Below are positions 45,808 through 62,352 of a stretch of 64,000 nt of DNA, in pieces. The stretch spans positions 2,090,158-2,154,157 of the forward strand of contig OZ244723.1 in NCBI GenBank assembly GCA_965219325.1, read 5' to 3'. Every line of letters starts with the position of its first letter. The stretch's first letter is position 1. The DNA comes from Dehalococcoidia bacterium (lineage in GTDB: Bacteria > Chloroflexota > Dehalococcoidia > Lucifugimonadales > UBA2962). Under the pieces are notes generated by a model. The model saw only the letters and a list, made by a program, of their open reading frames with translations. It did not search any database and was not told the origin of the DNA. The position numbers and the translations under genes are program-made.

Positions 45808-46065
45808 CTAGCCGTCCTCTTTACGATCCCGCGGCTCGCGAAAGTTCCTCGACGAGCTAGAGACGGACGGCTCGATCACCATCGAGCGTTTCACCGTGAA
45901 TCGGCCCACGACCTCAAGGTCGACCGTGTTGGCGGGACGGTCGACACCGAGCAAAAGACCCTCCCAGACGATGGCGCCGAATGGGCTGTAAGCACAGAGA
46001 ATCATGTACAGCGCTTTCCTATCGTCCGTGTTCCCTTCTACTCGCGTGTCCCAATAGAGTGACAT
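45808..46065 (-). CDS. Hypothetical protein
   Basis: 85-aa ORF with plausible AAGAG RBS; no family recognised. Confidence 0.3.
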   Translation of the reverse strand: MSLYWDTRVEGNTDDRKALYMILCAYSPFGAIVWEGLLLGVDRPANTVDLEVVGRFTVKRSMVIEPSVSSSSRNFREPRDRKEDG

Positions 46066-46796
46066 GGACGTTCTCTTAGGCCCTTTATGGACACCAAACG
46101 GACAACCAAGCTCGATGCCAAGCTCGTCTCAATACCCTTTACGTTCTCCAGCCTCAAATGATTAGAGAAATGCTGTCAGATGAGGTCTTCAAGCTCGTTT
46201 CTCACGCCTGCCTTAGAGGCATCTTCGCACACGCTTGTATAGCCGTTCTTTCGTTCTTGTTTCTCAGTGGGTCCAACACCAAAGATCAACAGACTAGGCT
46301 TACCCAGCCGTCAAGACAAAACTCCGTAAGACGGCCCCAGCTTTCGGCCCCGATAGCACGGCCGTACAATCTCGCAATTTAACAACCTGACGTCGAAAAC
46401 GAGTCCGGGACGTACCCTGTCCCGACTCTCGACTTCAGAAAACTCCAACAGGCTAGCTATTCCAATCCCGGTTTTGGCACCACACTCCCTGCCAACACTC
46501 GGGCGGATATCGTTGAGCCGAGACGGACAGGCGCCGATCAACTCCGGCCTGTTGATCCTTCTGATCATCGCGGGTGACCACGAGGCGGCCTTTTGGGCAA
46601 GCGGGATAGTTGAGTACGAATTCCGAGCTGCGGACAGTTCGTCATTGACAGGGTCGCCGTCGCCGAGCGATCAACGTGGGCGAAAGGTCGAGAACGGCTG
46701 TACACAGGGCCAGAGAGGTGATAGGGTCTAGCCGTGCCGCGTTTCGAAATCCAAGATTTACGGCACGCGACTTGACATAGAGGGGCCAATTCCGAC

Positions 46797-48431
46797 GTGC
46801 GACCAATAGCGGAGATCGCCAAGAGATTGGGGCTCGATCCCAAGCTGCTAATCCCCTACGGACACTACAAGGCCAAGATCCCTCTGGACGCGTTGGGCCG
46901 AGAAGGCGGTCGCGGCAAATTGATCGTGATCACTGGCATGACTCCAACGCCCGCTGGGGAGGGCAAGACGACCACCGCTGTGGGGCTTGCCCAGGGTATG
47001 GGGCAACTCGGGGTCAACGTAGTTACCACCCTGCGTGAACCGTCCCTTGGCCCAATCTTCGGCATCAAGGGCGGCGGCACAGGCGGCGGCAAATCTCGTA
47101 TCGAGCCCGAGGATGAAGTGAACGTCCACTTTACCGGTGACGCTCATGCTGTCGGCTCAGCCCACAACCTGCTGGCCGCACTTACGGACAACGCCGTACA
47201 GCGAGGGCTGGTGGCCAGCATGACCCCCGCAGGGATAACCCTTCGGCGTGTGTCGGACATGGAGGAACGATCGCTGCGACAGATTGCCACAGGACTTGGT
47301 GGCGTAAACAACGCCCCGGTTCGGGAGACAGGCTTCGACATTGTCACCGCTTCCGAGGTTATGGCGATACTCGCATTGAGCACGGACCTCGAGGACCTCA
47401 GGGCAAGGCTCAGCCGGATGGTGGTCGGTTTCGCCGACGACGGCCGAGGGGTAACGGCGGCCGACGTTGGCGCGGTTGGCTCGATGATGTCGCTGCTTCG
47501 CCACGCCCTTCTACCCAATCTCGTCCAGACCACCGAAGGTCAACCAGTCATCGTCCATACGGGTCCGTTTGGCAATATCGCCCATGGGTGCAGCTCGGTG
47601 GTCGGGGATCGTCTCGCGCTCTCGTATGCGGACTACGTGCTCACTGAAGCCGGCTTTGGCGCGGACCTAGGATTCGAGAAGTTTATGCACATTAAGGCAC
47701 GCACCTCAGGCCTGCATCCACAGGGTGCGGTGATCGTGGCCACAATAAAGGCGCTTAAGTACCACGGCGGTGTGAAAGTCAGGGATCTAGATCCTCCCAA
47801 TCTCTCGGCAGTTGAGGCGGGCCTGGACAACTTGACGCACCTCATCGGGGTTATCCGTTCTTTCGGACTGCCCGTGGTTGTCGCTTTGAACCGCTTTCCC
47901 ACAGATACACCCGATGAGCTTCGCATCGCCGCGCAGGGTAGCGAGGACGCCGGTGCAGCCGCGACTGTCGAGAGCAGTCCTTTCACCGATGGGGGCTCGG
48001 GGTGCAGAGACTTGGCGGAGGCGCTGATCGCAGCGACCGACGACTCCGCACGTACGGGAGACCCGGTGATCGACTACGCTTACGACCTGTCGGACTCTCT
48101 GGAGGACAAGGTCCTCGCATTGGCCCGCAGGGTCTACAATGCGGCCGATGCAACCTGGAGTCTGGCCGCGCGAAGGCAACTGCGCCGCTTCCGCGAGCTG
48201 GGATGGGAAGACTTGCCCGTGTGCATGGCCAAGACGCACCTGTCGATCAGCCACAGGGCTGGGCTCAAGGGCCGTCCCTCTGGCTACACTTTTGAGGTCA
48301 GCGACGTACGGGCGTCCGTGGGCGCAGGGTTCATATACCCGATCGCGGGGAACATAGTCACGATGCCTGGATTGCCAACTAGACCGCGCTCCCTCGACGT
48401 CGACGAAGATGGGGCCATCATAGGTCTTTAG
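46797..48431 (+). CDS. fhs: Formate-tetrahydrofolate ligase
   Basis: TPTPAGEGKTT, LREPSLGP.FGIKGG, HFTGD, HTGPFGNIAHG, TEAGFGADLG.EKF, CMAKT, TMPGLP. Confidence 0.96.
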   Translation: MRPIAEIAKRLGLDPKLLIPYGHYKAKIPLDALGREGGRGKLIVITGMTPTPAGEGKTTTAVGLAQGMGQLGVNVVTTLREPSLGPIFGIKGGGTGGGKSRIEPEDEVNVHFTGDAHAVGSAHNLLAALTDNAVQRGLVASMTPAGITLRRVSDMEERSLRQIATGLGGVNNAPVRETGFDIVTASEVMAILALSTDLEDLRARLSRMVVGFADDGRGVTAADVGAVGSMMSLLRHALLPNLVQTTEGQPVIVHTGPFGNIAHGCSSVVGDRLALSYADYVLTEAGFGADLGFEKFMHIKARTSGLHPQGAVIVATIKALKYHGGVKVRDLDPPNLSAVEAGLDNLTHLIGVIRSFGLPVVVALNRFPTDTPDELRIAAQGSEDAGAAATVESSPFTDGGSGCRDLAEALIAATDDSARTGDPVIDYAYDLSDSLEDKVLALARRVYNAADATWSLAARRQLRRFRELGWEDLPVCMAKTHLSISHRAGLKGRPSGYTFEVSDVRASVGAGFIYPIAGNIVTMPGLPTRPRSLDVDEDGAIIGL

Positions 48432-48557
48432 TATCCAGTTGGCCTATGCCTACCGATTTGACGGACGGTTGGCGCCCGCGCAAGGGACGAGGCAAATGTA
48501 GCCCTTTCCCGTGAGGGGATGCCGAGAGAAGTAAGCTGCGACTGTTTGACAATCCCC

Positions 48558-49793
48558 ATGCCCGAACTGTTCAACCTTCTGCCCCCGGATGAGGCGATCG
48601 CTGTCCTACTAGAGCGCATCGGTGACGTACGGATGAGCTCAGAGACGGTCCACGTCTCTAGCGCACTGGACCGGGTTACCACGAGGCATTGCGTATCCCC
48701 TGCCGGGTTGCCCGCATTTGCGCGGTCCGCAATGGACGGATACTCGGTCCGCGCTGCCGACACCTTCGGGGCAAGCGACGGCATGCCCGCCTACCTGGAA
48801 GTTGTCGGCGAGGTTCCCATGGGGAGGGCGCCGCAGGTTACGTTGGGTCCGGGACATGCCGCAGTAACATACACCGGCGGAATGCTGGCAGAGGGAGCCG
48901 ACGCGGTCGTAATGGTCGAGCACACCCACTCTGTAGGTGAGGCCACCATAGAGATCGTTCGCTCAGTCGCTCCTGGACAGAACGTCGTCCAGTCCGACGA
49001 GGACGTTCGGGCCGGTCAGGACGTGGTGCCAGCAGGCCATACTCTCCGACCCCAAGATCTAGGTGCTCTGCTTGCGGTCGGAGTGACCATCGTCGCGGTT
49101 GCCCGCCGGCCGAGGGTTGCAATAGTATCCACTGGCGACGAGCTCGTTGATCCGGGCGAACAGCCCGGTCCCGGGCAGGTGCGGGACATTAACACGCACA
49201 CGGTGGCGGCCCTGGTGGAACGCGCCGGCGGCGCGCCGGTGCGTCTGGGGATCTTCCCCGACGACATCAAAGCTCAGAAGGTGGCCGCACGCGAGGCGAT
49301 GGACCGCGGAGATATCGTGGTATTTTCGGCGGGAAGCTCTGTCGGCAGCCGTGACATGACCGCCAGGGTGCTCGCCGACCTTGGAGGGCCGGGTGTGCTG
49401 GTCCATGGCATATCGATTAAGCCCGGCAAGCCGACGATAGCCGGCCTGGCGGGCAACACGCCCGTCTTCGGCCTGCCCGGCAACCCAGTGTCGGCGATGG
49501 TTGTCTTCAACCTGGTCGTCCGCCCGGTCATCCGCTCTCTCATGGGCGCAAGAGAACCCGCGGCTAGTCGGGTTGTCCCGGCAACGCTGGCCTCGGACGT
49601 TCCGTCCGCACCCGGCCGTCAGGATTTTTTCCCAGTACGGTTCGAGACGGGTCCCGGCGGTCTGGTAGCCGAGCCAATCTTCGGCAAATCAAATCTGATA
49701 TTCACCCTTGTACGTGCCGATGGATTGGCATCGGTAGCGCTTGACTCCGGCGGTCTGTACGCGGGTGACACAGTGCACGTCACTACATTTTGA
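48558..49793 (+). CDS. moeA: Molybdopterin molybdenum/tungsten transferase
   Basis: SAMDGY, TGG...ADAVVMVE, STGDEL, PGKPT, LPGNPVS. Confidence 0.93.
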   Translation: MPELFNLLPPDEAIAVLLERIGDVRMSSETVHVSSALDRVTTRHCVSPAGLPAFARSAMDGYSVRAADTFGASDGMPAYLEVVGEVPMGRAPQVTLGPGHAAVTYTGGMLAEGADAVVMVEHTHSVGEATIEIVRSVAPGQNVVQSDEDVRAGQDVVPAGHTLRPQDLGALLAVGVTIVAVARRPRVAIVSTGDELVDPGEQPGPGQVRDINTHTVAALVERAGGAPVRLGIFPDDIKAQKVAAREAMDRGDIVVFSAGSSVGSRDMTARVLADLGGPGVLVHGISIKPGKPTIAGLAGNTPVFGLPGNPVSAMVVFNLVVRPVIRSLMGAREPAASRVVPATLASDVPSAPGRQDFFPVRFETGPGGLVAEPIFGKSNLIFTLVRADGLASVALDSGGLYAGDTVHVTTF

Positions 49794-49794
49794 G

Positions 49795-51774
49795 ATGGAG
49801 CACGGCAGAAAGGTTGGCCGCCGCTATTACCTGCAAGATGTGCCTCTGGATGAGGCACTGCAGCGCTTCGACGAAGCGATCCACAGGTCCGGCGGCCACC
49901 CGACCACAGGGCCGGAGACCATGTCCTTGGAAGAGGCGGCAGGCCGAATTACGTCAGAACCCATATGGGCCCTGAAGTCTTCTCCCCACTACGATGCCGC
50001 TGCGATGGATGGGGTCGCCGTGCGGTCGGCCGAAACGGTCGGGGCAACAGAGACAGCGCCGCTGCGATTGAGGATCGGCGAACAGGCCGTCTGGCTGGAT
50101 ACTGGGGATCCCATGCCTGACGGCTTTGACGCCGTTGTGATGATCGAACACGTCCAGGACCTTGACGGAATGCACATCGAGATTCGGGAGCCGGTGGCGC
50201 CGTACCAGCACGTCCGACCAATTGGCGAGGACATAGCAGCGACCGAATTGGTGCTACCGGGAGGTCACCGAATAAGGCCGCAGGATCTAGGGGCCTGTGC
50301 GTCCGCTGGAGTGGTGACGGTCAAGGTGCGCAAGAGGCCATCAGTAGCGATCATCCCCACGGGCTCCGAACTGGTAGAGCCCGGCGTCGACGCCGAGCCC
50401 GGGCAGGTGGTGGAGTTCAACTCGATCATGCTGGCTGCTCAAGTGCGTGAATGGGGTGGAAAACCGATCCGCATGGATCCAGTCGAAGACCAGCCCAAGC
50501 TGATCGAAGAATCGATCCTAAAGGCTGCCAGCGGGAACGATATTGTTGTCATCAACGCGGGCTCTTCGGCCGGCTCTGAGGACTACACAGCCCCCGCCGT
50601 CCAAGCTCTAGGTGACCTGGCGGTTCATGGAGTCGCAGTACGCCCCGGGCACCCAGTCGTGCTCGGGATCGTGGAGGGACGACCGGTACTGGGTATTCCC
50701 GGTTATCCGGTCTCTGCACTAGTCACATCCGAACTCTTCCTGAAGAGGACCATAGAGGGATGCCTTGGCATCTCAACAAGAGCTTCTCGTTCCCATGACC
50801 TGACCGCCCTGACCCGGGGCCCGACGGCGGAGGCCGTGGTTACCAGGAAGATCTACTCCCCTGCAGGGGAGGACGAGTTCCTGAGGGTCCGCTTGGGGAG
50901 AGTTGACGGCAGTTTGGTCGCCACACCCATACGGCGGGGAGCGGGGGTAATAATGTCGCTCGTCGAGGCCGATGGAATCGCCCTGATTCCACGTTTTTCC
51001 GAGGGGTTAGAGGCCGGTTCAAGAGTCAGGGTCGAGCTGCTTCGGTCCCTGAATGAGATTGAAGACACGATCGTGGTTACCGGAAGCCACGACCTGACTC
51101 TGGACGTATTGGCGAACCTGCTGGGAGAAACTGGCGACTCACGCCTCGCATCGGCCAATGTTGGCTCTCTCGGTGGTCTAGTGGCCCTAGAGCGTGGCGA
51201 GGCTCATATGGTCGGCACACACTTACTCGACCCCGACACGGGGGAATACAACCTCAGTTATATTCGACGCCATGTGTCAAGGGACGTGACGGTTGTCACC
51301 CTGGTGCATAGGATCCAAGGTCTGATCGTTGCCCGGGGCAACCCACTTGGATTAGCCTCTCTGACTGACATAGCAAGTGGGCGGGCAACGTTCGTAAACC
51401 GACAGAGGGGCTCTGGAACCCGCGTTCTACTAGACCATCAACTCCGGGCGGCGCGCCTCGCTCCTCAAGCTATCGAAGGATACGCGCGTGAGGAATACAC
51501 TCACCTATCGGTCGCGGCCGCAGTAGCTAGCGGGCGGGCGGACGTTGGGCTTGGCATTCAGTCTGCCGCCCGTGCTTTCGACCTCGACTTCGTTCCCCTG
51601 GTAAGGGAACGTTACGATCTCGTGACGCCATCGGAGTTGCTCGACGCAGGGCCGGTAAGAACTGCTCTGGCAGCTATCCGGTCGCGCACGTTCAAGGAAC
51701 GTGTGGACGGGCTCGGCGGCTACGATACCCGGGAAACCGGGGGGGTAGTCGCCCAACTGACGGCAAGAAATTGA
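49795..51774 (+). CDS. moeA: MoeA fused to a periplasmic-binding-protein-like (PBP) domain
   Basis: AAMDG, PTGSEL, RPGHP, PGYPVS; C-terminal GSHD, VGSLGGL, FVNRQRGSGTR, ERYDL. Confidence 0.92.
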   Translation: MEHGRKVGRRYYLQDVPLDEALQRFDEAIHRSGGHPTTGPETMSLEEAAGRITSEPIWALKSSPHYDAAAMDGVAVRSAETVGATETAPLRLRIGEQAVWLDTGDPMPDGFDAVVMIEHVQDLDGMHIEIREPVAPYQHVRPIGEDIAATELVLPGGHRIRPQDLGACASAGVVTVKVRKRPSVAIIPTGSELVEPGVDAEPGQVVEFNSIMLAAQVREWGGKPIRMDPVEDQPKLIEESILKAASGNDIVVINAGSSAGSEDYTAPAVQALGDLAVHGVAVRPGHPVVLGIVEGRPVLGIPGYPVSALVTSELFLKRTIEGCLGISTRASRSHDLTALTRGPTAEAVVTRKIYSPAGEDEFLRVRLGRVDGSLVATPIRRGAGVIMSLVEADGIALIPRFSEGLEAGSRVRVELLRSLNEIEDTIVVTGSHDLTLDVLANLLGETGDSRLASANVGSLGGLVALERGEAHMVGTHLLDPDTGEYNLSYIRRHVSRDVTVVTLVHRIQGLIVARGNPLGLASLTDIASGRATFVNRQRGSGTRVLLDHQLRAARLAPQAIEGYAREEYTHLSVAAAVASGRADVGLGIQSAARAFDLDFVPLVRERYDLVTPSELLDAGPVRTALAAIRSRTFKERVDGLGGYDTRETGGVVAQLTARN

Positions 51775-51985
51775 CAGGCGTCCACTGCCAATCCCACCAA
51801 GTGGACATGCCTGAGTGACCTTGCGCTGGTGGGGTGATCACTGCTTTTCTCCGGATTCTTAACATCCAGGGTAGAACCGGTAGCCACCCTATCTTCATCC
51901 TCCCACAGGCGAGCCACCGGGCGATCTGTCCTTCTCACTATGGCCGGACGATGCCCGTCTCGGAGCCTCGTGGTAATCTTGGTCA

Positions 51986-52654
51986 ATGGTACCGGAGGGC
52001 GGTGGCACCGTAGCGAACTGCTCCACTGACCTCCGGTCGATCACCGCCGTCGTACTTGCTGGCGGGCGCAGCCGACGCCTGGGACGAAACAAGGCCCTCG
52101 AGCTCATTGGGGGAGTGCCGCTAATAGCCCGCGTCACCTCCGCCATTCGGCCGATATCCTCGGAGACTCTAATAGTCGTCGCGGAGGAGGAACAGGCTCA
52201 GGTCCTTCCGCTTCCGACCTATGTGCAAGTCGTCCGTGACCTGTACCCCAACGCGGGATCGCTCGGGGGAATCCTTACGGGGCTGACCGCCGCGACGGGT
52301 GTGTGGGCCCTCGTCGTTGCGTGCGACATGCCCTTCCTGAGCCAGGCCTTACTCGCCGAGATGGCATCTGCGAGGGATGGTTGCGACGCCGTCGTCCCTC
52401 TCTTGGACGGGAGACCCGAACCTACCCACGCGCTCTACTCCAAGGATTGCGTAGAACCTATCAGGAAGAATCTAGAGGCTGGAGAGCTAAAGATCTCGGC
52501 GTTCTTCGAAATGGTCAGGGTAAAGTACCTCCCACAGCCAACGGTTGAGGCACTCGATCCAGGGCTGTGGAGCTTCTTTAACGTCAACACTCCGTCAGAC
52601 CTTGAGATCGCGATGGCACGCGCGGCAGAGATGGCGAGCGATCCCGTAGGATAG
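51986..52654 (+). CDS. mobA: Molybdenum cofactor guanylyltransferase
   Basis: VLAGGRSRRLGRNKA, GSLGGI, ACDMPF, EPTHALY, NVNTP. Confidence 0.92.
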   Translation: MVPEGGGTVANCSTDLRSITAVVLAGGRSRRLGRNKALELIGGVPLIARVTSAIRPISSETLIVVAEEEQAQVLPLPTYVQVVRDLYPNAGSLGGILTGLTAATGVWALVVACDMPFLSQALLAEMASARDGCDAVVPLLDGRPEPTHALYSKDCVEPIRKNLEAGELKISAFFEMVRVKYLPQPTVEALDPGLWSFFNVNTPSDLEIAMARAAEMASDPVG

Positions 52655-52680
52655 AGCTATACAAAACACAAAATAGCGAT
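52654..52680. promoter_or_regulatory. ModE/TunR-like operator upstream of moaD-aor
   Basis: GCTAT-N12-ATAGCGAT, same spacing as the ModE consensus ATCGCTATATA-N6-TATATAGCGAT as I recall it; inner bases diverge. Confidence 0.35.
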
Positions 52681-52746
52681 ACTACCCTGTTGCAAATTCT
52701 TGGTCGCCGATAGCGTGAACAGTGCACGGTAAACCGGCACCACTGA

Positions 52747-53091
52747 ATGGCCAGCGTGAGCGCGGCACGGAGAAAGACTTCAGGGACGATTAAGGGACAA
52801 GTGGGCGATCCTGAGAGAAGGGTAACGGTCGAGCTGTTCGGTAACGCCAGACTGCTGGCCGGTCAAAGCAGTTTGGACTTGAGCGTGCCCGCCAAAGCTT
52901 CAGCCGTCGAGGTTGCCGAGCGGTTGGCCAAAGTCGAACCGGCACTCGTGGGCGAGGTGATAGACCCAGATAGAGGACTGCTTTCAAGCTACGTACTGAA
53001 CCTGAACGGCACCTACTTCATGTCCTCCGAGAGCAGGCGGATAAGATCTGGAGACCGCATTCTCCTGTTTTCCAGCCAGGCAGGCGGCTAG
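52747..53091 (+). CDS. moaD: MoaD/ThiS family sulfur carrier
   Basis: VELFGNAR; C-terminal AGG. Confidence 0.85.
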   Translation: MASVSAARRKTSGTIKGQVGDPERRVTVELFGNARLLAGQSSLDLSVPAKASAVEVAERLAKVEPALVGEVIDPDRGLLSSYVLNLNGTYFMSSESRRIRSGDRILLFSSQAGG

Positions 53092-53125
53092 GGTTGGCAT
53101 CGCCCTGCCAACGGCACGACGCAGC

Positions 53126-55009
53126 ATGAATCACCTAGGTTTAGAGGGAACCGGTCTGATCCAAAGCGAAGCGGTTTATGGCTACCACGGCCGTTCCCTC
53201 CTAGTTGACCTAGATACTGGAGAGGCGACGTACGAGCCCATTCCCGATGAGATCTTGCGGGCTTTCATCGGCGGGACGGGACTAGGTGCGTGGCTACTGT
53301 ATCGGCACTGCCCCGAGAAGGCAGAACCCCTGGGGCCCCTAAACCCCCTGATCTTCGTGACCAGCCCCCTGGTGGGCAGCCGACTGACGACCTCCAGCAA
53401 GTTCGCGGTCCTGGCAAAGTCGCCGCTCACAGGCCTCATAGGCGACTCGCTGTCGTCGAGCTTCATGGCCCCCGAGCTCAAGCGGTGCGCCTTTGACGCC
53501 TTGGTCATAAGGGGTGCCCGCGAGCGCCCTACCCTTCTGAGGATAGAGGACGGACAAGTAGACCTCCTTGACGCCTACGACCTTGTCGGAAAGACAACGA
53601 CGGATACAGAAAGACTGGTGAAGGAGCGCCTTGGACGGGGCTTCCGCGTGGCCTGCATAGGGCCTGCCGGCGAGTCGCTGGTCAGGTTCGCCAGTATAAG
53701 TAGCGAAGGAGGCAGGCAAGCGGGCCGGACCGGCGTCGGTGCTGTCATGGGGTCCAAAGGCCTCAAAGCCATTGCGGTAAAGGGATCGGCGAAAGTTGGG
53801 GTTGCCCATCCGGTCGCCCTAGCAAGCATCGGGATTGAATTAAGTCGCCGAAGCCTAGGACAAGCCACGGAAAAGTATAGAACCCTAGGCACCATGGCGA
53901 ATGTCGAGGTCTTCAGCCGTCTGGGCGTCCTGCCCACCCGAAACTTCCAGGCCTCAACCTTTGAGGGTGCAGCCAAGATCGGAGGGGAGCGATTCAAGAC
54001 CGATCATCTGGTTCGAACCGCCCACTGCGCCAACTGCACCATAGGCTGTGAACATGTGATGACCACGAGGGACCATGGAGCCAAGGTCGAGGGCCGGATG
54101 GAATACGAGTCAGCATTCGCTCTGGGCTCCTTGCTGGGCATCTCCGACCCCAATGCAGTGCTGCGAGCGTCCGTCCTGTGCGACGAACTGGGTATGGACA
54201 CCATAAGTGCCGGTGCGACCATAGCCTGGGCCGCCGAAAGCGCATCAAGAGGCCTGTTGGACTGTAAAGGAGCCAAAGACGGATCCGCACTGCTGTTCGG
54301 GGACGTAGAGGCACTGCCGAAGGTCCTGGAGGACATTGCGCATCGGCGGGGTCTAGGCGATCTGCTGGCGGATGGCAGTCGCAGGGCGGCGAGGCTACTG
54401 GGTAAAGGCTCAGATGCGTGGGCCATGCACGTAAAGGGGCTTGAGATGCCCGGCTACGAGCCCCGGTCTCTCAAGACTATGGCGCTGGCTCTCGCGGTCA
54501 GCACCAGGGGAGCTTGCCACAACCGATCCTCGGCGTACGAGGCTGACTTCTCGTCCCGTGTGGACCGTCTGAGCGCGGACTCTCAGATGGGCCAGATCGT
54601 CGTCGAAGGGGAAGACTGCTCGGCGGTGATGGATTCACTTGTTTGGTGCAAATTCCTGCGCCGCGTCTTCACAGACTTCTACGTTGAGTCGGCAGAGGTG
54701 ATGTCATGTGTAACGGGATGGGACGTTACTCCAGAAGAGCTTCGTGTCGCAGGCGAGCGCATCAACAACCTGAAGAAGCTGTTCAACCTCCGAGAGGGTT
54801 GGTCCCGGGCCGACGATTCCTTACCTCCAAGAATCCTCAATGAGGAACTCAGCGACGGACCGGTCAAGGGTGTCAGGCTCTCGAAGCGAGATCTTGACCG
54901 GATGATTGCTTCCTACTACCAGTCCCGGGGCTGGGAGCATGACGGCACCATTCCCGAATCCAAACTGGCCGACTTGGGCCTGCTTGAACTGGGGCGACCG
55001 GTCGCCTAG
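53126..55009 (+). CDS. aor: Aldehyde:ferredoxin oxidoreductase family (tungstopterin) enzyme
   Basis: FIGGTGLG, AKSPLTG, GRTGVGAVMGSKGLKA, C.NCTIGC, EYE, CDELGMDTIS, RGACH, GERINNL..LFN. Confidence 0.92.
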   Translation: MNHLGLEGTGLIQSEAVYGYHGRSLLVDLDTGEATYEPIPDEILRAFIGGTGLGAWLLYRHCPEKAEPLGPLNPLIFVTSPLVGSRLTTSSKFAVLAKSPLTGLIGDSLSSSFMAPELKRCAFDALVIRGARERPTLLRIEDGQVDLLDAYDLVGKTTTDTERLVKERLGRGFRVACIGPAGESLVRFASISSEGGRQAGRTGVGAVMGSKGLKAIAVKGSAKVGVAHPVALASIGIELSRRSLGQATEKYRTLGTMANVEVFSRLGVLPTRNFQASTFEGAAKIGGERFKTDHLVRTAHCANCTIGCEHVMTTRDHGAKVEGRMEYESAFALGSLLGISDPNAVLRASVLCDELGMDTISAGATIAWAAESASRGLLDCKGAKDGSALLFGDVEALPKVLEDIAHRRGLGDLLADGSRRAARLLGKGSDAWAMHVKGLEMPGYEPRSLKTMALALAVSTRGACHNRSSAYEADFSSRVDRLSADSQMGQIVVEGEDCSAVMDSLVWCKFLRRVFTDFYVESAEVMSCVTGWDVTPEELRVAGERINNLKKLFNLREGWSRADDSLPPRILNEELSDGPVKGVRLSKRDLDRMIASYYQSRGWEHDGTIPESKLADLGLLELGRPVA

Positions 55010-55024
55010 GGATAGATAATCGGG

Positions 55025-55528
55025 GTGGCACGAGACAGGCAAAGGGACCGAGACCGCAAGGGTCTGCGCTCCGACCTGCGCGATCTATTCCCTCGAGAAC
55101 GCGGGCTGCTACTTCCTGCATTGCATTACCTTCAGCATCGTTTCGGCCACTTACCCGATTGGGCGATGGAAGTCGTGTCATGGCATCTTGGGATACCGGC
55201 CAGCGAGGTATACGGTGCAGCTTCTAGCTACTCGGAGTTGCGCATCGACAAACCCGGCACGCACATCGTCCGGGTCTGCACTGGGCTCAGCTGCCGGATC
55301 TCAGGGGCGGGCGCGGTCCTGAAGGCCGTTAAGGGCCGCTTGGGCGTCGAGCCAGGCGAAACCGCGCGGGTCGGCTCGGGAAAGACAGTGACCATTGAGA
55401 CCACGGCCTGCGGATTCTTGTGCGGTGTGGCGCCGGCCTTGCAGATGGATGGGCGATGGCTCGGTCAGGCGACCCCAGAGCGGGCTATCAAAGTCGTGGA
55501 TAGCCTGAGCGAGAAGGTGACGGAGTGA
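55025..55528 (+). CDS. nuoE: NuoE/HydC-like [2Fe-2S] subunit
   Basis: EVYGAASSY, CTGLSC, CGFLCGVAP. Confidence 0.88.
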   Translation: MARDRQRDRDRKGLRSDLRDLFPRERGLLLPALHYLQHRFGHLPDWAMEVVSWHLGIPASEVYGAASSYSELRIDKPGTHIVRVCTGLSCRISGAGAVLKAVKGRLGVEPGETARVGSGKTVTIETTACGFLCGVAPALQMDGRWLGQATPERAIKVVDSLSEKVTE

Positions 55529-57120
55529 CTGTCCGAACCGCGTTCGGGCGCCTACGCGAAGGGGCGAACAAGCGACTGGCGACTGAGGGCGGAAAGATCC
55601 GCGTCGCGGTGCGGGCGGGCCACTGCTCGATTGCACTGGGGGCGGAGGATGTTCTCAGGGCCTTCAAGGAGGACCTGCTCGACAACGCCAGACTCGTTGC
55701 TACCGGATGCGATGGTGCCTGCTACGCCGGCCCCCAGGTCGTCATCACCGCACCCGATGGGGAGTCCGTATTGCTGCCTAGGGTCGACGTGGATACGGCG
55801 ATACGCATATCCACGATCCTCGAGGGAGGCGGGACGCCCCTGCGCTATACAGATGACATCTCAGCTTTCATCGACGGCCAGGTACGCGTGGTCCTCAAGG
55901 GCTGCGGGGACATTGATGCCGAGGGCATTGACGAGTACCTACAGTGTGGCGGCTACCGTGGTCTGGCTGCTGCATTGTCAGATTCGCCGGAGGCGACGAT
56001 TGCGAGCGTCAAGGAGTCTGGCCTCCGGGGCCGCGGTGGCGCGTATTACCCGGCCGCTCTCAAGTGGGAGGCCGCGAGGGCGGTAGTAGGGGGATCTCGT
56101 TATCTGGTCGTCAACTCCGAAGAGGGTGAACCAGGGTTGTTCAAGGACCGACACCTCATGGAAGGGGTGCCCCACCGGATCGTGGAGGGGGCACTGATCG
56201 CGGCCTACGCAACCCAGGCCAGCGTCATATACGTGTACATCAACGCGGAGGCCGACCTTTCAGCCCGTCGGATCGAAATGGCGCTCTCAGACGCCGAGGC
56301 ACTTGGCCTGATAGGAGACGATGTCCTTGGCTCGGGCTGGTCCGTACGGGCAGAGATACGGCGTGGGGCCGGAGGCTACGTGTGCGGTGAAGAGACGACG
56401 CTTCTGAACACCATGGACGGCCGACGTCGCGAGCCCAGGCTGCGTCCTCCCTTCCCCACCGAGGCGGGCCTGCGCGGACGACCTACCGTGATCAACAACG
56501 CAGAGACCCTTTCGAACCTACCATTCATCCTGACCGAAGGGCCAGCTGCATTCAGCGCGCTTGGCGCTAAGAATGCCAGCGGAACCAAGGTGCTTAGCCT
56601 GTCTGGCGCGGTAGCGCGTCCCGGGCTGGTTGAGACGCCTTTCGGGACTCCTCTCTCCTCCGTAGTCGAGCGCATGGGAGGAGGCATGCGAGACGGCAGT
56701 GTGCTGACCGCACTTGGCGTCGGGGGGCCGTCAAGTGGGCTGCTGCCGCCCGTTTCGCTTGATATCGAGGTAATGCCAGGTATGCTGCACGAGTCAGGGG
56801 TTATTCTCGGTGCCGGCGGGCTTGTCGCGTTCGACGAATCCGTAGGAATTCTGGACGCGATGCGAGCGCTCGCCGCGTACAATGCGGACGAGTCTTGCGG
56901 CAAATGCACCCCTTGCCGCGAGGGTACGCCCCGAATTGTCGAGGTGATCGACCGGCTGGCGCGTCGCGGTGCCTCCAAGGCAGACGTAGAGGAGTTGACT
57001 TATCTGGCCGAGGTGGTCGGCTCTGCCTCCCTATGTGGCTTAGGCCAAGCCGCAGGCGGCCCCATAACCAGCACGCTTCACTTTTTTGGGAGGGAGCTAG
57101 GCATCCCCCCAGAGAATTGA
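55525..57120 (+). CDS. nuoF: NuoF/HydB-like FMN/NADH-binding subunit with N-terminal thioredoxin-like domain
   Basis: SGLRGRGGA, NSEEGEPG.FKDR, YVCGEET, NNAETL, ESCGKCTPCREG, CGLG. Confidence 0.92.
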   Translation: MTVRTAFGRLREGANKRLATEGGKIRVAVRAGHCSIALGAEDVLRAFKEDLLDNARLVATGCDGACYAGPQVVITAPDGESVLLPRVDVDTAIRISTILEGGGTPLRYTDDISAFIDGQVRVVLKGCGDIDAEGIDEYLQCGGYRGLAAALSDSPEATIASVKESGLRGRGGAYYPAALKWEAARAVVGGSRYLVVNSEEGEPGLFKDRHLMEGVPHRIVEGALIAAYATQASVIYVYINAEADLSARRIEMALSDAEALGLIGDDVLGSGWSVRAEIRRGAGGYVCGEETTLLNTMDGRRREPRLRPPFPTEAGLRGRPTVINNAETLSNLPFILTEGPAAFSALGAKNASGTKVLSLSGAVARPGLVETPFGTPLSSVVERMGGGMRDGSVLTALGVGGPSSGLLPPVSLDIEVMPGMLHESGVILGAGGLVAFDESVGILDAMRALAAYNADESCGKCTPCREGTPRIVEVIDRLARRGASKADVEELTYLAEVVGSASLCGLGQAAGGPITSTLHFFGRELGIPPEN

Positions 57121-57189
57121 TGTTCGTGTTATAGGATTTGTGAGACGGCCTGTTGGAGCTCCCGGGCCTATGCGACTCGTGCATGGACT

Positions 57190-57417
57190 GTGAACATGAA
57201 CATCGGTAGCAACAGCCGGCTGTACGCAGGAGTGGCCATCGGCATTGCCGCTGGCGTGGCGATTGGTGCTTTCCTCGACTCGGTGGCCATTGGGGTAGCC
57301 ACAGGCGTAGGAATCGGAGCCGCATTGGGCGTCGCTTGGTCACAGCCGACCAAACAGAGGCGTCGCGTCGGCAAAGGCACCGGACAGCGCAGCGAAGATA
57401 GGCGATCCAGCGAGTAA
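57190..57417 (+). CDS. Small glycine-zipper membrane protein
   Basis: Regular GxxxG repeats GVAIGIAAGVAIG...GVATGVGIGAALG. Confidence 0.6.
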   Translation: MNMNIGSNSRLYAGVAIGIAAGVAIGAFLDSVAIGVATGVGIGAALGVAWSQPTKQRRRVGKGTGQRSEDRRSSE

Positions 57418-57432
57418 CCAGAACGCGCAGTA

Positions 57433-60180
57433 ATGGGCATAGAAATAACGATCGACGGGCGGGAGGTTATCGTGGGCCACGGGGCCTCGGTGCTAGATGC
57501 CGTCAATCTCTCCGGCACCTACCTATCCCAGTTGTGCAAGGACCCTGACATGAAGCCAATCGGGGCCTGCCGAACCTGCTTGGTGCAGGTGGATGGTATT
57601 CGCGGGTATCCGGCCTCGTGTTCCCTTCCTGCGGCCAACGGAATGAGGATTCGAACGAATACTCCGGACCTGCGTCGCATCCGGTCAGGCGTAATAGAGT
57701 TGACTATGGCCATGTTCCCGGAGTCGGCCCCGGTCTGCGTCCCGCAGTCGCCCTCGGAGAACGGCTCGGCAGATATGGTCGGCCACCGCGAACTGACCAT
57801 CGCCGCCGAGCACCATGGCATTGCTTCCTCGCGATGGTCGGGCCGTCCAAGGAATCCAACGGACACATCTAACCCGGTTTTCGACATAGCCATGCAGGAC
57901 TGCATCCTTTGCGGACGGTGCACCCGTGCCTGCCAGGACGGCCACCAGTTCATAGGCGCCATCGATTTCCTTGGAACTGGTGCCGCATCCAGCCGAATCG
58001 GCACGTTCATGGACCGCGACCTAGTGGACTCGGTATGCACAACTTGCGGCCAGTGCCTTTCGGTCTGCCCTACCGGAGCCATCCGCGCCAAACAGACGGT
58101 CTCCAATGTCACTAGGACCATCGGCACCACCTGCCCCTACTGCGGGGTCGGCTGCGGCATCAAAGCCAGGGTCAACGGCGACGGCAATATAGTCGAGATG
58201 TTGGATGACCCGGACAACCAGTCGAGCCTGGGTATGCTCTGTGTCAAGGGCCGATTCGGATACACGTTCGTGCACGACAAGAGTCGCCTAACAACACCGC
58301 TCGTCCGGAAAGATGGCGTGCTTCGACCGGTGAGCTGGGACGAGGCACTCGACACGATCTCCGACAGGCTATCTCGGTACAGCGGCGAGGAGTTCGGCAC
58401 CCTTTGCTCTGCCAAGGCCACTAACGAGGACGGCTACGTCCAGCAAAAGTTCGCCCGGCTCGTGATGAAGTCCAATAACATCGATCACTGCACCCGCCTT
58501 TGTCATGCGCCCTCAGTGTCGGCGATGCAGACCGCGCTCGGCAGTGGGGCCACATCCAATTCATACGTCGACTACGAGGAGGCTGGCTGCCTGATGATCG
58601 CCGGCTCAGACGCCGACTCCAACCATCCGGTTGCCGCAGCTCGCATGCGGCGGGCTGTCGTTGAACGCGGTGCGAAGTTGATCGTAATCAATCCCAGACG
58701 CATTGGAATGTGCGATCAGGCCGACCTGTGGCTCAGGCCGAGACCGGGTACGGATGTGGCGCTGTTCAACGCCATGGCCAGCGTGATATTGGATGAGGGC
58801 TTGGCCAATGAAGAATTCATCCGTGCCAGGACTCAGGGCTTTGAGGAGTGGCGCGCCGTGATCGAGCGCTACGACGCATCGTTTGCCGAGAGCATCACCG
58901 GGGTGCCGGCCGAGGATATAGCCCAAGCTGCGCGCACCTACGCTTCTCCGCCATTCTCTGGTTCCTGCCTCATATGGGGTATGGGCATCACCCAACACAC
59001 GAACGGCACCCCCAATGTTCACACCCTACTCAACCTCGCCCTGGTAACAGGGCAGCTGGGTAAACCGGGTTCAGGCGTCTCACCACTGAGAGGCCAAAAC
59101 AACGTACAGGGCTGCGGAGACTCGGGCTGCCTCCCCAATTCATTCCCCGGTTACCACAATGTAGAGTCGGACCAATATGCCCGCTTCCGTCAAGCGTGGG
59201 GCGGACACCACCTACCGGAAAAGAGCGGTCTCGTGATCACCGAGATGACCAACGAGATGATTACCGGCGCAATAAAGGCCATGTACGTGACTGGGGAGAA
59301 TCCCCTGCTGTCGGAACCCGACCTAACCCATGCCCACAGGGCCTTTGAGAGCCTCGAGTTCTTGGTTGTGCAGGACATTTTCATGCACGAGACCGCCGAG
59401 ATAGCCGACGTTGTGCTACCGGCCACCTCCTTTGCCGAGAAGGACGGAACCTTCACCAATAGCGAGCGCCGGGTACAGCGGGTTCGCAAGGCGGTCGAGC
59501 CGGTTGGCGACAGCAGGCCGGATTGGGAGATCCTATGCGACCTAGCACAGCGCGTAGCCGAGCGACGTGGGCTTGAAATCGGGAACCAGTTCTCTTTCTC
59601 GCATCCGTCGCAGATATGGAATGAGATGGCCTCGCTTGTTCCGATGTTCGGCGGCATCGACTACGACCGCCTGGAGCGCGAGGGCGGGCTGCAGTGGCCC
59701 TGCCCTACCCTAGAGCATCCAGGCACCCGCTATCTTTACGCGGATGAGTTTCCGCACGGGGAGCCAGCGAGGTTCGTCGCCTTCGACCAGGGTCCAGCAG
59801 CGGAGGAAATGCCTTCAAAGCGCTTCCCCCTGATCCTCAATACGGGCCGCATCCTGTACCACTGGCACGGCGGCACCATAACGCGACGAGCCTCCGCTCT
59901 TATGGCCCGAGCACCTGAATTGACCGTTTCAATGAACGAGCGGGACGGCGAACGCTACGGCCTGGAGGAGGGTGACTGGGCACGGTTGAAATCGCGGCGA
60001 GGCTCTTTGGAGGCGCGCGTGATATTTGACGAGAAGATGGAGGAGGGGCAGGTATTCGTGCCCTTCACGAAGCTTAAGGAATCGGCCGCCAACTTCCTCA
60101 CCAACTCCGCTCTGGACCCGGATTCCAAGATACCCGAGTACAAGGTCTGCGCCGTCAGGGTGGAAATTGCGGACGGTTGA
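57433..60180 (+). CDS. fdhF: Formate dehydrogenase alpha subunit (Cys-type) with N-terminal Fe-S domains
   Basis: CILCGRC, CTTCGQC, CPYCGVGC, LCVKGRFG, NIDHCTRLCHAPS, PLRGQNNVQG, FAEKDGTFTNSERRVQR, PEYKVCAV. Confidence 0.95.
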   Translation: MGIEITIDGREVIVGHGASVLDAVNLSGTYLSQLCKDPDMKPIGACRTCLVQVDGIRGYPASCSLPAANGMRIRTNTPDLRRIRSGVIELTMAMFPESAPVCVPQSPSENGSADMVGHRELTIAAEHHGIASSRWSGRPRNPTDTSNPVFDIAMQDCILCGRCTRACQDGHQFIGAIDFLGTGAASSRIGTFMDRDLVDSVCTTCGQCLSVCPTGAIRAKQTVSNVTRTIGTTCPYCGVGCGIKARVNGDGNIVEMLDDPDNQSSLGMLCVKGRFGYTFVHDKSRLTTPLVRKDGVLRPVSWDEALDTISDRLSRYSGEEFGTLCSAKATNEDGYVQQKFARLVMKSNNIDHCTRLCHAPSVSAMQTALGSGATSNSYVDYEEAGCLMIAGSDADSNHPVAAARMRRAVVERGAKLIVINPRRIGMCDQADLWLRPRPGTDVALFNAMASVILDEGLANEEFIRARTQGFEEWRAVIERYDASFAESITGVPAEDIAQAARTYASPPFSGSCLIWGMGITQHTNGTPNVHTLLNLALVTGQLGKPGSGVSPLRGQNNVQGCGDSGCLPNSFPGYHNVESDQYARFRQAWGGHHLPEKSGLVITEMTNEMITGAIKAMYVTGENPLLSEPDLTHAHRAFESLEFLVVQDIFMHETAEIADVVLPATSFAEKDGTFTNSERRVQRVRKAVEPVGDSRPDWEILCDLAQRVAERRGLEIGNQFSFSHPSQIWNEMASLVPMFGGIDYDRLEREGGLQWPCPTLEHPGTRYLYADEFPHGEPARFVAFDQGPAAEEMPSKRFPLILNTGRILYHWHGGTITRRASALMARAPELTVSMNERDGERYGLEEGDWARLKSRRGSLEARVIFDEKMEEGQVFVPFTKLKESAANFLTNSALDPDSKIPEYKVCAVRVEIADG

Positions 60181-60186
60181 CAGGAT

Positions 60187-61002
60187 ATGACCCAGCGAAT
60201 TACGGAAATTTCGAGGCCGAAAGCAGAGAGCTTTATGGCCGGCCGCAAGATATACCTGGTGCCGACGTTGCTGGCGGGCCCTGGCATTCCGGACGAACTC
60301 TCGGAGATGCTCAATCGCTACTGGGACGAGGTGCGTGAACAGGTGGAGAGCCTTGAACGAACCCTCAGTAAGGTAAAGCACGTCTACCACGAGTCCGTAT
60401 TCAAACCGGGTGAGGAAGGGTTGCGCACAGTGGAAGGCGTCAACCCCCACGGACACGCCTTTGTAAATGTGCTGTGTCGGTCTACCGCAACGCTGGAGCC
60501 GACCGACGAACAAAAGGCCCTTGTCGAGGCGTCCGACTGGAGGCTGTGCCTGTCGATTGGACTGGCCAGCGAGAAGGTCACCAGGATAGCTAGAGACTCA
60601 CTTGACGACGCCATGAGGGCACGGTACTCGCACATAGCCACCGCAATTGACAAGACCTTGGGGGATGATGAGGCGGGCCTGTGTATCCTCAGCGAAGACC
60701 ACCGGGTGCAATTCCCCGGGGATATACAGGTTTTTTTCATATCGCCGCCCTCGCTGGATGAGATTAAGCGGTGGGCGGAAGAGCAGATGCGGCGGCTGAC
60801 GTCAGAAGGGAGCGGAGGCGGAGATTCCATATTTGAGTCAAGCGAGGAGATGGACACAGACGACGTCGGCGAATCGGGCACCGGACCAACAGAGCAAGGG
60901 GACGCAGCAGCTGACGACACGGCTGCGGAAGCCGCAATAGACCCCGAGCCCGAGGCCGGAAAGGACACACAGGCTGGAAGGTATCCGGAGTACCCCCACT
61001 GA
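60187..61002 (+). CDS. Hypothetical protein with acidic C-terminal tail
   Basis: 6 bp after fdhF, long protein-like ORF; no family recognised with confidence. Confidence 0.75.
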   Translation: MTQRITEISRPKAESFMAGRKIYLVPTLLAGPGIPDELSEMLNRYWDEVREQVESLERTLSKVKHVYHESVFKPGEEGLRTVEGVNPHGHAFVNVLCRSTATLEPTDEQKALVEASDWRLCLSIGLASEKVTRIARDSLDDAMRARYSHIATAIDKTLGDDEAGLCILSEDHRVQFPGDIQVFFISPPSLDEIKRWAEEQMRRLTSEGSGGGDSIFESSEEMDTDDVGESGTGPTEQGDAAADDTAAEAAIDPEPEAGKDTQAGRYPEYPH

Positions 61003-61198
61003 GTGGGAGCCTGTCAACGCCCACGACAAACGCCGCGATCAGGAATGCCGGCTTGGGTGATTGATCGCGCGGTCTCAGTCCCTTAGGTGTTCCATTTCGG
61101 ACGATCGCGGACGAGCACAACGGGTAGTGCCTCGCGATCAGTTCCGAGTCGATGTTAGCAGAGGAAATGTCCGGGGACCGCGCCTCCAGTACTACTGA

Positions 61199-61330
61199 CC
61201 GGAGTTCATGGCAAAGGCCACCAGCAGGAGGCCGTCCGATGCCTGGACAAAGACTCCATACAACAAGCCCGGCTCCCCTTGTGAGGACGGCTACTTGGCT
61301 AGCTTTGATCGAAACTTAAGGAACGAATGT
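61199..61330 (+). pseudogene. Degenerate IS3-type transposase fragment
   Basis: PEFMAKA...TPYNKPGSPCEDGYLASFDRNLRNEC resembles PEFIAKA...YIEPGSPWENGY.ESFNGKLRDEC. Confidence 0.7.
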
Positions 61331-61581
61331 AGGAAAGTAAGACCTTCCAATTGCTGGTGTGGGTGAAGGTATTGACGTCCCAATTCAGTCAGACGTCTAA
61401 ACGTGACCGGCTCCACAACTCGCTGGGCTACACGCCACCACCGCCGTAAACCATCCCGCCTACAGGATCCCTTATAGCGCTCGTCCAACCAACGTAACAA
61501 ATCGCATGGGGTTACAGGTGTAGGTCAGTTTTCGCAACGGCGGCATCAGGTGAATCTGAATTTGTCTTCCCGCCCGTCAAT

Positions 61582-62352
61582 TCATCGAACTTCATCTCCG
61601 CCATCTATAACGTATGCGGAGCCGGTTACGAAAGCGGCATCATCAGAGGCGAGATAGAGTATGAGCTTGGCGACATCCTCGGGCTGGCCGGCCCGGCCAA
61701 GGGGAATTCTAGATACGTACTCATCGAATATGCCAGCTGCGCCCTCTACGGCCTGAGAGCCAGGGGTGTCGATGAGGCCCGGAACTACGCAGTTGGAACG
61801 GATTCCGTAGGGAGCATATTGGTTGCTGGCGGTCTTTGTCAGCTGGACTACGCCAGCCTTGCTCACAGAATAGGGGACTGAAAACGTCGAGCCTCGCAGC
61901 GCATTTATGGAGGCCACGTTCACTATAGCTCCTTCCCCCACTTCGAGCATGCGGGGAATTGCGTACTTACAGCATAGGAAAATACCCTTGACGTTGATAT
62001 CCATCACGACGTCCCACTCCTCCTCCGTCACGTCGACCAAAGGAGGAGTCTGCACCTGCCGGCCGGCGACGTTGATTAGCAGGTCCACCTTGCCGTAGCG
62101 ATCCACCGTGTGCTGAACCATGCCCTGGACCTGAGAGGGCCGGGAGACATCGGTTTGGACGAAAAGGGCATCTCCACCGGACTCGTCGATGAGCGCGACA
62201 GTCTCTTCGCCTCCTCGCACGTTGACATCGGCGACAATGACCTTCGCGCCTTCCCCGGCAAAAAAGAGGGCGGTGCACCGCCCGATGCCGGAGCTGCCTC
62301 CGGTGATGATGCTTACTTTACCGTCCAGCTTCCCAGGCATGGTTTTCTCCAA
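61582..62352 (-). CDS. Short-chain dehydrogenase/reductase
   Basis: TGGSSGIG, INVAG, YSVSK, DGG. Confidence 0.92.
   Translation of the reverse strand: MEKTMPGKLDGKVSIITGGSSGIGRCTALFFAGEGAKVIVADVNVRGGEETVALIDESGGDALFVQTDVSRPSQVQGMVQHTVDRYGKVDLLINVAGRQVQTPPLVDVTEEEWDVVMDINVKGIFLCCKYAIPRMLEVGEGAIVNVASINALRGSTFSVPYSVSKAGVVQLTKTASNQYAPYGIRSNCVVPGLIDTPGSQAVEGAAGIFDEYVSRIPLGRAGQPEDVAKLILYLASDDAAFVTGSAYVIDGGDEVR

Follow-up and report, generated by a model that had tools for sequence, protein, structure and literature searches.

In the genome of a Dehalococcoidia bacterium (assembly GCA_965219325.1, contig OZ244723.1), the gene of a tungsten-type aldehyde:ferredoxin oxidoreductase (AOR) was found embedded among the genes of an NAD-linked formate dehydrogenase (FDH). 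The cluster lies at positions 46797-61002 of the 64,000-nucleotide stretch of DNA analysed here (the window; contig positions 2,090,158 to 2,154,157). It combines aor and the FDH genes nuoE, nuoF and fdhA with genes for the maturation of pterin cofactors (two moeA paralogues, mobA and worX) and with fhs, encoding formate-tetrahydrofolate ligase. Comparison with related loci makes a functional association of AOR and this type of FDH well supported, because the neighbourhood recurs, with shuffled gene order, across phyla, and it is very likely that the two enzymes work together. The parts are all known kinds of enzymes. The fixed embedding of a gene for a WorL large subunit in NAD-FDH operons lies outside the five-class scheme into which the WORs have been sorted (PMC13328260), and no description of it was found in the searchable literature.

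Conservation of the aor-FDH linkage

The proteins of the window were compared with 58 genome loci retrieved by AOR, a locus being counted when at least 7 kb of downstream flank was available. In 28 of the 29 Dehalococcoidia loci, with AOR identities of 47-91%, aor is followed by nuoE, nuoF and fdhA, and in most Dehalococcoidia relatives fhs heads the conserved block. The reverse comparison used 80 metagenome loci retrieved by FdhA, which were counted given enough upstream flank. Here aor was found upstream in all loci with an FdhA identity of at least 60% (17/17) and in none of those with an identity of 55-59% (0/19), in which nuoF is located beside fdhA throughout (19/19). Locus L095 harbours mobA-nuoE-nuoF-fdhA, the same operon without worX-aor. 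This suggests that worX and aor form an insertable two-gene cassette.

The pairing was also found in other phyla. The gene order in Kofleriaceae is nuoE-nuoF-fdhA-worX-aor, with mobA and both moeA genes divergent, and a metagenome-assembled genome (MAG) of the Acidobacteriota shows the aor-FDH pairing in a divergent arrangement. A compact operon, nuoEF(fused)-mobA~worX(fused)-aor-fdhA, is carried by one MAG each of the Myxococcota and the Planctomycetota and by five more contigs (together L040, L060 and L146-L150), the five further contigs (L146-L150) having been retrieved through the Myxococcota AOR. In these compact operons aor is located between the genes of the two FDH subunits, and its distance to fdhA ranges from a 4-bp overlap to a spacer of at most 60 bp. 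As the flanking genes vary between contigs, the four genes evidently move together. In L147 a second AOR gene and a divergent ThiS-family gene (3305-5405) are located directly upstream of the compact operon. About 10 Thermomicrobiales/Sphaerobacter loci and several Polyangia loci carry aor, often with worX, and FDH is absent from them within the flank.

Seen again in dozens of related loci, the aor-FDH arrangement is, on the evidence of sequence, not a product of chance. An earlier sequence-only reading of the cluster had named a lack of conservation of the linkage among the findings that would speak against its proposal of a joint AOR-FDH system, but conservation was found among the Dehalococcoidia, among the closer FdhA relatives and, in shuffled orders, in other phyla.

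The junctions within the cluster are less rigid. The aor-nuoE junction takes insertions of 0.3 to 3.7 kb in relatives. Among these are a gene for a DUF6232 protein, a toxin-antitoxin pair of the nucleotidyltransferase type and, on the minus strand, genes coding for a bPH_2 protein and a membrane protein of 810 aa. Minus-strand genes are located between aor and nuoE in L042 (11856-12419) and L057 (12468-15473). The nuoF-fdhA junction is equally permissive, with ParE and putative GIY-YIG inserts, and both spacers appear to be insertion hot spots for small genes, either selfish or unrelated. Junction inserts were located at 11945-12663 in L018 and L021 and at ~14200-15400 in L011, L012 and L055. 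Insertions between aor and nuoE are a weak argument against wiring of the two enzymes, since the nuoF-fdhA junction, between genes of subunits that surely assemble, tolerates inserts equally.

Two further variants were observed among the Dehalococcoidia. The closed chromosome OY282365.1 (L024) harbours aor, a 342-aa open reading frame (ORF), nuoE and nuoF at 10001-21818, with no fdhA within 7 kb; a 700-aa minus-strand ORF without family match follows nuoF. In L004 and L010 (~6900-9040), representing one Dehalococcoidia lineage only, gcvT, gcvH and a GDC-P fragment are located between moeA2-PBP and mobA. Found in these two loci only, the glycine-cleavage genes were rejected as a general member of the cluster.

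Gene content of the cluster

Gene identities were assigned from the ORF listing and from Pfam and NCBIfam profile searches of the window (Table 1). These confirmed the gene content, the coordinates, the plus-strand orientation of all ten genes and the 15-bp spacing of aor and nuoE that the sequence-only reading had described. That reading had missed a conserved 73-aa ORF in the nuoF-fdhA spacer, and two of its labels had to be replaced: its 'moaD' remains below the family cut-offs and corresponds to the ThiS-like WorX, and its 'fdhF' codes for an FdsA-type alpha subunit with a NuoG-like N-terminus, not for an FdhH-type FdhF.

Table 1 Genes of the aor-FDH cluster, with their positions in the window and the supporting profile matches
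Gene and product	Position	Strand	Profile match or remark
fhs, formate-tetrahydrofolate ligase	46797..48431	+	PF01268 (FTHFS) 697 bits; NF010030 666 bits vs cut-off 652
moeA1, molybdopterin metal-insertion protein	48519..49793	+	MoeA_N, MoCF_biosynth and MoeA_C domains; kept in relatives
moeA2, fused to PBP_like (oxyanion-binding) domain	49741..51774	+	NF011068 735 bits vs cut-off 534; PF12727 233 bits
mobA, molybdenum cofactor guanylyltransferase	51986..52654	+	PF12804 126 bits; MobA equivalog models match below cut-offs
worX, ThiS/MoaD-like, 114 aa, C-terminal Gly-Gly	52747..53091	+	ThiS E 0.0015, SAMP1 E 2.5e-6, both below cut-off
aor, WorL large subunit, tungsten-type aldehyde:ferredoxin oxidoreductase	53126..55009	+	AFOR_N (PF02730) 232 bits; AFOR_C (PF01314) 401 bits
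nuoE/fdsG-like [2Fe-2S] subunit	55025..55528	+	PF01257 102 bits; HoxE, FDH-gamma and NuoE models match below cut-offs
nuoF/fdsB-like FMN and NAD(H) subunit, not Bfu-type	55525..57120	+	Complex1_51K, SLBB and NADH_4Fe-4S domains
73-aa glycine-zipper hydrophobic ORF	57196..57417	+	protein-level conservation in relatives
fdhA/fdsA, formate dehydrogenase alpha subunit	57433..60180	+	TIGR01591 764 bits vs cut-off 666
271-aa ORF, family restricted to Chloroflexota	60187..61002	+	no Pfam or NCBIfam match

The genes are closely spaced. The likely true start of moeA2 is the ATG at 49795 (Met19), 1 nt past the moeA1 stop, with the NCBIfam match running from residue 27; given this start, the two moeA genes abut. 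The spacing is 34 bp between worX and aor and 6 bp between fdhA and the 271-aa ORF, and nuoE and nuoF overlap by 4 bp. Two wider gaps precede mobA (211 bp) and fdhA (312 bp), the latter containing the 73-aa ORF. No molybdenum or tungsten cofactor (Moco/Wco) riboswitch or other Rfam RNA was found at E up to 0.1 in 44900-61500. Promoter and terminator scans gave counts not above those in shuffled sequence, and transcription units are not definable from them. In the sequencing runs holding the sequence, depth was flat over genes and spacers, a DNA-like signal.

The AOR is assigned to the WOR/AOR family as a WorL protein, with domains, cluster ligands and catalytic Glu and His all present. Its best relatives of known structure are WorL of Acetomicrobium mobile (9mqx_D, 394 bits) and AOR of P. 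furiosus (1aor, 389 bits), followed by P. furiosus FOR (340 bits) and AorB of Aromatoleum aromaticum (305 bits). The [4Fe-4S] ligands C301/C304/C308 (CxxCxxxC) and C508, as well as the catalytic motifs EYE (MEYES) and C464-H465, align with 9mqx_D. Class I is defined by a lone WorL, its gene having no WorS, WorN or WorABC subunit genes beside it and WorX being optional (PMC13328260). WorS and WorN are absent from the locus and WorX is present, yet NuoE- and NuoF-like genes adjoin aor; these belong to an FDH that is autonomous elsewhere and may or may not serve the AOR as well. Genes for ferredoxin, WorS or AorA were found neither in the cluster nor, by Pfam, in the ~40 larger ORFs elsewhere in the window, and the profile scans bear out the earlier statement that the cluster holds no separate ferredoxin or AOR Fe-S partner gene. 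The sole other Fer4 domain among the scanned ORFs belongs to a GlcF-like protein at 38910-40418.

No fusion of AOR to NuoE, NuoF or NuoG was found among the best 150 AOR family representatives, the only fusions in this set being to a ferredoxin domain and to hexulose-6-phosphate synthase. P0421 (707 aa) has an N-terminal 2x[4Fe-4S] ferredoxin domain. P0379 (832 aa), of which the AOR part is 40% identical to the window AOR, carries a 3-hexulose-6-phosphate synthase domain (TIGR03128, 204 bits vs cut-off 200). Both are possible gene-calling fusions. The P0379 fusion indicates, in a single and distant case, that a link between AOR-family enzymes and formaldehyde metabolism can exist.

The proteins NuoE, NuoF and FdhA are assigned to the FdsGBA/FoDH1 type of formate dehydrogenase, and homology points to NAD+ as the acceptor. 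In NuoE, Cys85/90/129/133 form the CX4C...CX3C motif of a [2Fe-2S] cluster. NuoF (531 aa) matches the beta subunits of solved FDHs (6vw7_B, 6tg9_B, 7e5z_B) and has the Cys residues of the N3-type cluster (C458/461/464/504). Alignments with Bfu B stop at about residue 508 of 584, so that the C-terminal 2x[4Fe-4S] domain is lacking, and the CX4C pair is absent from the N-terminal domain of NuoF. By the criteria of PMC9304861, NuoF is predicted to be non-bifurcating and FdsB-like, outside the Bfu core. FdhA consists of a NuoG-like Fe-S N-terminus and a catalytic domain for bis-molybdopterin guanine dinucleotide (bis-MGD), its best solved relatives being the W-FDH of M. extorquens (7vw6_A, 670 bits) and FdsA of R. 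capsulatus (6tg9_A, 632 bits). Cys357-His358 occupy the position of Sec140-His141 in E. coli FdhH and align also with FdhF of the hydrogen-dependent CO2 reductase (HDCR), and the catalytic Arg, in the motif PLRGQNNVQG, is likewise present and aligned to both. The His-Cys3 [4Fe-4S] cluster, present in R. capsulatus FdsA and absent in FoDH1, is absent from FdhA. FdhD/fdsC and fdsD were not found among the window ORFs scanned; these are accessory, not defining, genes and may lie elsewhere in the genome.

Two features of the FDH were considered as correlates of the aor linkage and rejected. Loss of the His-Cys3 (A3/N5-like) cluster was tried as a sign of AOR docking, but the cluster is absent in the aor-linked FDHs and equally in all aor-free FDHs except that of L095, and in M. 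extorquens FoDH1. The Cys pattern of the NuoF N-terminus and a C-terminal extension of NuoF showed no difference from aor-free FDHs.

MobA is required for the bis-MGD of FDH, while the AOR-type cofactor needs no MobA. The mobA gene accompanies the aor-FDH pair in every arrangement seen. Both moeA paralogues are present in the Dehalococcoidia, Kofleriaceae and Acidobacteriota arrangements, and the moeA pair was not found in the compact operons. WorX ends in ...SSQAGG, and its gene is located immediately upstream of aor in nearly all relatives, the FDH-less ones included; the name was given to the ThiS-like neighbour of Class I WOR genes (PMC13328260). In L060 (9177-9989), MobA carries at its C-terminus a fused ThiS-like WorX domain that ends in Gly-Gly, with a BLAST E of 4e-8 to the window WorX. 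A MobA~WorX gene is likewise located at 9021-9887 in L040, and the 'NTP_transf_3' genes of L146-L150, coding for 242-291 aa, are of the same kind, the BLAST verification being that of L060. This fusion is a Rosetta-stone clue, hinting that WorX acts alongside MobA in the maturation of pterin cofactors. A common maturation pathway of the two pterin cofactors is part of what keeps the genes clustered, since mobA is always present and since, in the Myxococcota-type operons, WorX is joined to the FDH-serving MobA in one protein. The MoeA pair gives no more than a hint of tungsten rather than molybdenum. Neither tupABC nor modABC was found among the window ORFs scanned.

The 73-aa ORF, rich in Gly, Ala, Ile and Val, codes for a glycine-zipper, membrane-like peptide with a basic tail and occupies the same position in the five closest relatives (L026, 92%; L005, 86%; L006, 77%; L008, 56%; L009, 52% identity). 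The 271-aa protein has 65 homologues, none with a Pfam domain, and all named sources are Chloroflexota. Its AlphaFold2 model has a mean pLDDT of 83 with a core above 95 and an acidic C-terminal tail predicted to be disordered; no fold match to the model was found in the PDB. Homologues at 41-42% identity occur in unrelated neighbourhoods, not beside FDH, and in other phyla the FDH-aor clusters lack the ORF. A role as analogue of FdhD, FdsC or FdsD or as an extra subunit was rejected in view of the lack of a family or fold match and the unrelated contexts of distant homologues. The ORF is regarded as a syntenic neighbour, and its membership of the module is doubtful.

Possible functions of the cluster

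Class I WORs with a WorX neighbour have been characterised as ferredoxin-dependent (PMC13328260), with AOR of P. furiosus, WOR of Brevibacillus massiliensis and CsWOR87 of Cetobacterium somerae as examples (PMC13328260, PMC9424855). The window AOR is similar to these in being made up of one large subunit with AFOR_N and AFOR_C, in its one [4Fe-4S] motif, in its catalytic residues and in having an upstream ThiS-like gene and no WorS. However, the window aor is embedded in an NAD-FDH operon, an arrangement conserved in Dehalococcoidia, recurring in other phyla and not included in the published definitions of the classes. The FDH shares its NuoE-like, NuoF-like and NuoG-like-bis-MGD modules and the Cys-His-Arg residues with FdsABG(D) of R. 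capsulatus and Cupriavidus necator and with W-FoDH1 of M. extorquens, and with FoDH1 specifically the missing His-Cys3 cluster. It differs from these systems by the aor-worX cassette in the operon and, in the closest relatives, also by the small membrane-type ORF.

With moderate confidence, we propose that the cluster encodes a co-expressed module of a Class I tungsten-type AOR with its WorX, an autonomous and non-bifurcating NAD-FDH, the cofactor genes and Fhs. The MoeA pair (one with an oxyanion-binding PBP domain), MobA and WorX would mature both pterin cofactors. The AOR would oxidise short aldehydes, plausibly with formaldehyde from demethylations and oxygenases among them, giving the acid or formate, and a soluble low-potential carrier (a ferredoxin whose gene lies elsewhere) would take up the electrons. 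The self-sufficient Cys-type FDH would oxidise formate to CO2, yielding NADH, and Fhs would connect formate to the folate one-carbon (C1) pool. What the sequences show are the identities of the genes, the cofactor-binding motifs and the conserved, recurring linkage; substrates, metal content, electron acceptors and co-transcription are what we infer.

Formaldehyde is the sole aldehyde whose oxidation product is a substrate of FDH. A route from a presumed formaldehyde substrate via formate to CO2 is reasonable, because fhs co-clusters, because glycine-cleavage genes are inserted in one lineage and because folate-linked C1 oxidation, next to FDH and ferredoxin-using enzymes, has been reported for SAR202 genomes (PMC5395668). 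Genes for a Zn-dependent alcohol dehydrogenase (Zn-ADH) and a short-chain dehydrogenase (SDR) neighbouring the cluster could equally supply other aldehydes than formaldehyde. The sequence-only reading had outlined such a C1 route with AOR and FDH sharing one NuoEF diaphorase, perhaps in a single complex. The functional association has stood and the C1 route is reasonable, but for the shared diaphorase or complex no positive sign was found in the sequence.

Several observations weigh against the proposed module. The ferredoxin acceptor is unseen, since neither the cluster nor the scanned window ORFs include a ferredoxin gene, and none is adjacent in five compact operons. The position of aor in these operons, sandwiched between the genes of heterodimeric FDH subunits, is unusual for an enzyme that works independently. 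Furthermore, the bit scores to solved structures place the AOR slightly nearer to the broad-specificity AORs (394, 389) than to P. furiosus FOR (340).

A rather unlikely alternative, tentatively considered, is that AOR docks directly on NuoE/NuoF/FdhA (or on fused NuoEF/FdhA) without WorS, so that one Fe-S chain leads to one FMN/NAD+ site. Direct wiring is favoured by the occurrence of aor inside FDH operons of no fewer than three architectures, spread over four or more phyla, by tight junctions (15 bp between aor and nuoE here and, in L060 and L146-L150, a 4-bp overlap with fdhA or a gap to it of 60 bp at most) and by the lack of an encoded ferredoxin in any cluster; in L024, moreover, aor-X-nuoE-nuoF is kept although fdhA is absent within 7 kb. 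WorABCSL and AorABC also set a precedent, since in them WorL is connected with a NuoEF-type or NAD-reducing module (PMC12318220). In Class IV bifurcating WorABCSL of A. mobile (9MQX; PMC12318220), WorL occurs beside NuoE-, NuoF- and NuoG-like proteins, as does the window aor beside such genes, and the Class III AorABC of A. aromaticum (8C0Z), an AOR-family enzyme ultimately reducing NAD+, has a homologous large subunit (305 bits). However, in the characterised multi-subunit WORs a WorS/AorA polyferredoxin and a dedicated adaptor helix link WorL to its partners (PMC12318220, PMC13328260), and these are absent here. Unlike WorABCSL, the window cluster lacks the WorS polyferredoxin with its four [4Fe-4S] clusters, its NuoF lacks the B3/B4 ferredoxin domain and does not show the set of extra clusters (B2-B5) that marks Bfu, and its NuoG-like protein is a full FDH, while WorA is small, with a Zn finger and the adaptor helix. 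Likewise, the AorA polyferredoxin and the FAD-containing AorC domains of AorABC were not found in the window cluster. The FDH/[FeFe]-hydrogenase complex of Clostridium autoethanogenum does carry two catalytic modules on one NuoEF-type NAD(P) module (PMC9304861), but this complex is Bfu-type and bifurcating and has extra Fe-S connector subunits, whereas the window encodes a non-Bfu NuoF and no connector.

On the side of the FDH no adaptation to AOR is visible, since the absence of His-Cys3, which leaves FdhA without an unoccupied branch cluster, and the NuoF architecture are identical in aor-free FDHs. Direct docking is further opposed by the occurrence of orthologous AORs without FDH in Thermomicrobiales, by the FDH modules without aor in sister lineages (0/19), by the minus-strand genes between aor and nuoE in L042 and L057 and by the lack of an AOR-NuoE/NuoF/NuoG fusion among the best 150 representatives.

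It is also conceivable, and in our view improbable, that AOR and FDH have unrelated roles and cluster only as clients of the common MoeA/MoeA-PBP/MobA/WorX maturation genes, with shared regulation by tungstate or molybdate as one example. The presence of mobA in every arrangement and of the moeA pair in Dehalococcoidia, Kofleriaceae and Acidobacteriota is in agreement with this, as are the fusion of the FDH-serving MobA to the AOR neighbour WorX in L060 and the occurrence of each module alone in other lineages. However, the compact operons hold mobA~worX and the two enzymes without moeA, with aor still located between FDH genes; no Moco/Wco riboswitch was found; and fhs co-clusters, yet needs no pterin-metal cofactor. 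Crude rate covariation gave a partial r of 0.74 for AOR versus MoeA2-PBP, 0.56 for MoeA1 and -0.28 for FdhA, but its positive controls failed (NuoF-FdhA 0.21, NuoE-NuoF -0.35), and no inference was drawn from it on AOR versus the FDH subunits.

A reductive direction, in which low-potential electrons derived from aldehydes drive CO2 to formate and Fhs captures the formate in a reductive-glycine-like manner, would fit fhs at the head of the cluster, the glycine-cleavage genes in the clusters of L004 and L010 and an aldehyde/acid couple more negative than CO2/formate (established knowledge and PMC9304861), but is highly improbable given that only one lineage (2 loci) has the glycine-cleavage insertion, that NAD-linked Cys-type FDHs are typical of formate oxidation, that SAR202 bacteria are described as oxidative heterotrophs oxidising C1 units (PMC5395668) and that it also needs the unproven direct wiring of AOR to FDH.

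Genomic surroundings and significance

The closest loci stem from Dehalococcoidia MAGs, some labelled SAR202, and a sponge metagenome is among the sequencing runs that contain the sequence. These data fit a SAR202-like Dehalococcoidia host from the sea or from a sponge, and the rest of the window fits sponge-associated Chloroflexota. Genomes of sponge symbionts typically encode eukaryote-like proteins with RCC1, Kelch or NHL repeats. In the window such repeat proteins are encoded at 17811-20171 (+; RCC1 and CAP), 23806-24990 (-; Kelch) and 32533-33870 (+; NHL and thioredoxin-like). The window also holds housekeeping genes and mobile-element genes, among which an HTH transposase and an IS3-type integrase (rve), at 15916-17439 (+) and 21010-21828 (+), and at about 22-26 kb its GC content reaches 0.67.

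About 6 kb upstream of fhs, at 36114-40418 (+), GlcD-, GlcE- and GlcF-like genes (two FAD-linked oxidases and a Fer4 and CCG protein) are followed by an SDR gene. A link of these glycolate-oxidase-like genes to AOR by way of glyoxylate or glycolaldehyde is conceivable. In the 1.8 kb directly upstream of fhs (45006-46796) no convincing ORF and no Rfam match was found. Even relatives whose AOR is 90% identical show no similarity to this region, in nucleotide or in protein sequence, and more distant relatives have a HAD hydrolase gene there. Just downstream of the cluster are the SDR gene (61582-62352, -) and the Zn-ADH gene (62924-63970, -), with one or two Zn-ADH genes at the same place in L001 and L002. 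These neighbours are a possible source of aldehydes for AOR.

SAR202-type Dehalococcoidia occur in abundance both in the deep ocean and in sponges, and their oxidation of C1 compounds and recalcitrant carbon is of biogeochemical interest. The proposed module would tie tungsten- or pterin-dependent aldehyde oxidation to formate oxidation in these bacteria. If the direct wiring were true, it would add a sixth architecture to the WORs, with aldehydes as well as formate oxidised by one NAD+-reducing machine, and this machine would be widespread in SAR202-type Dehalococcoidia, Myxococcota and Planctomycetota. The compact four-gene operon makes a tractable construct for probing how WorL might be wired to an NAD-reducing module without a polyferredoxin, and the MobA-WorX fusion provides a concrete lead on the role that WorX may have in pterin-cofactor maturation.

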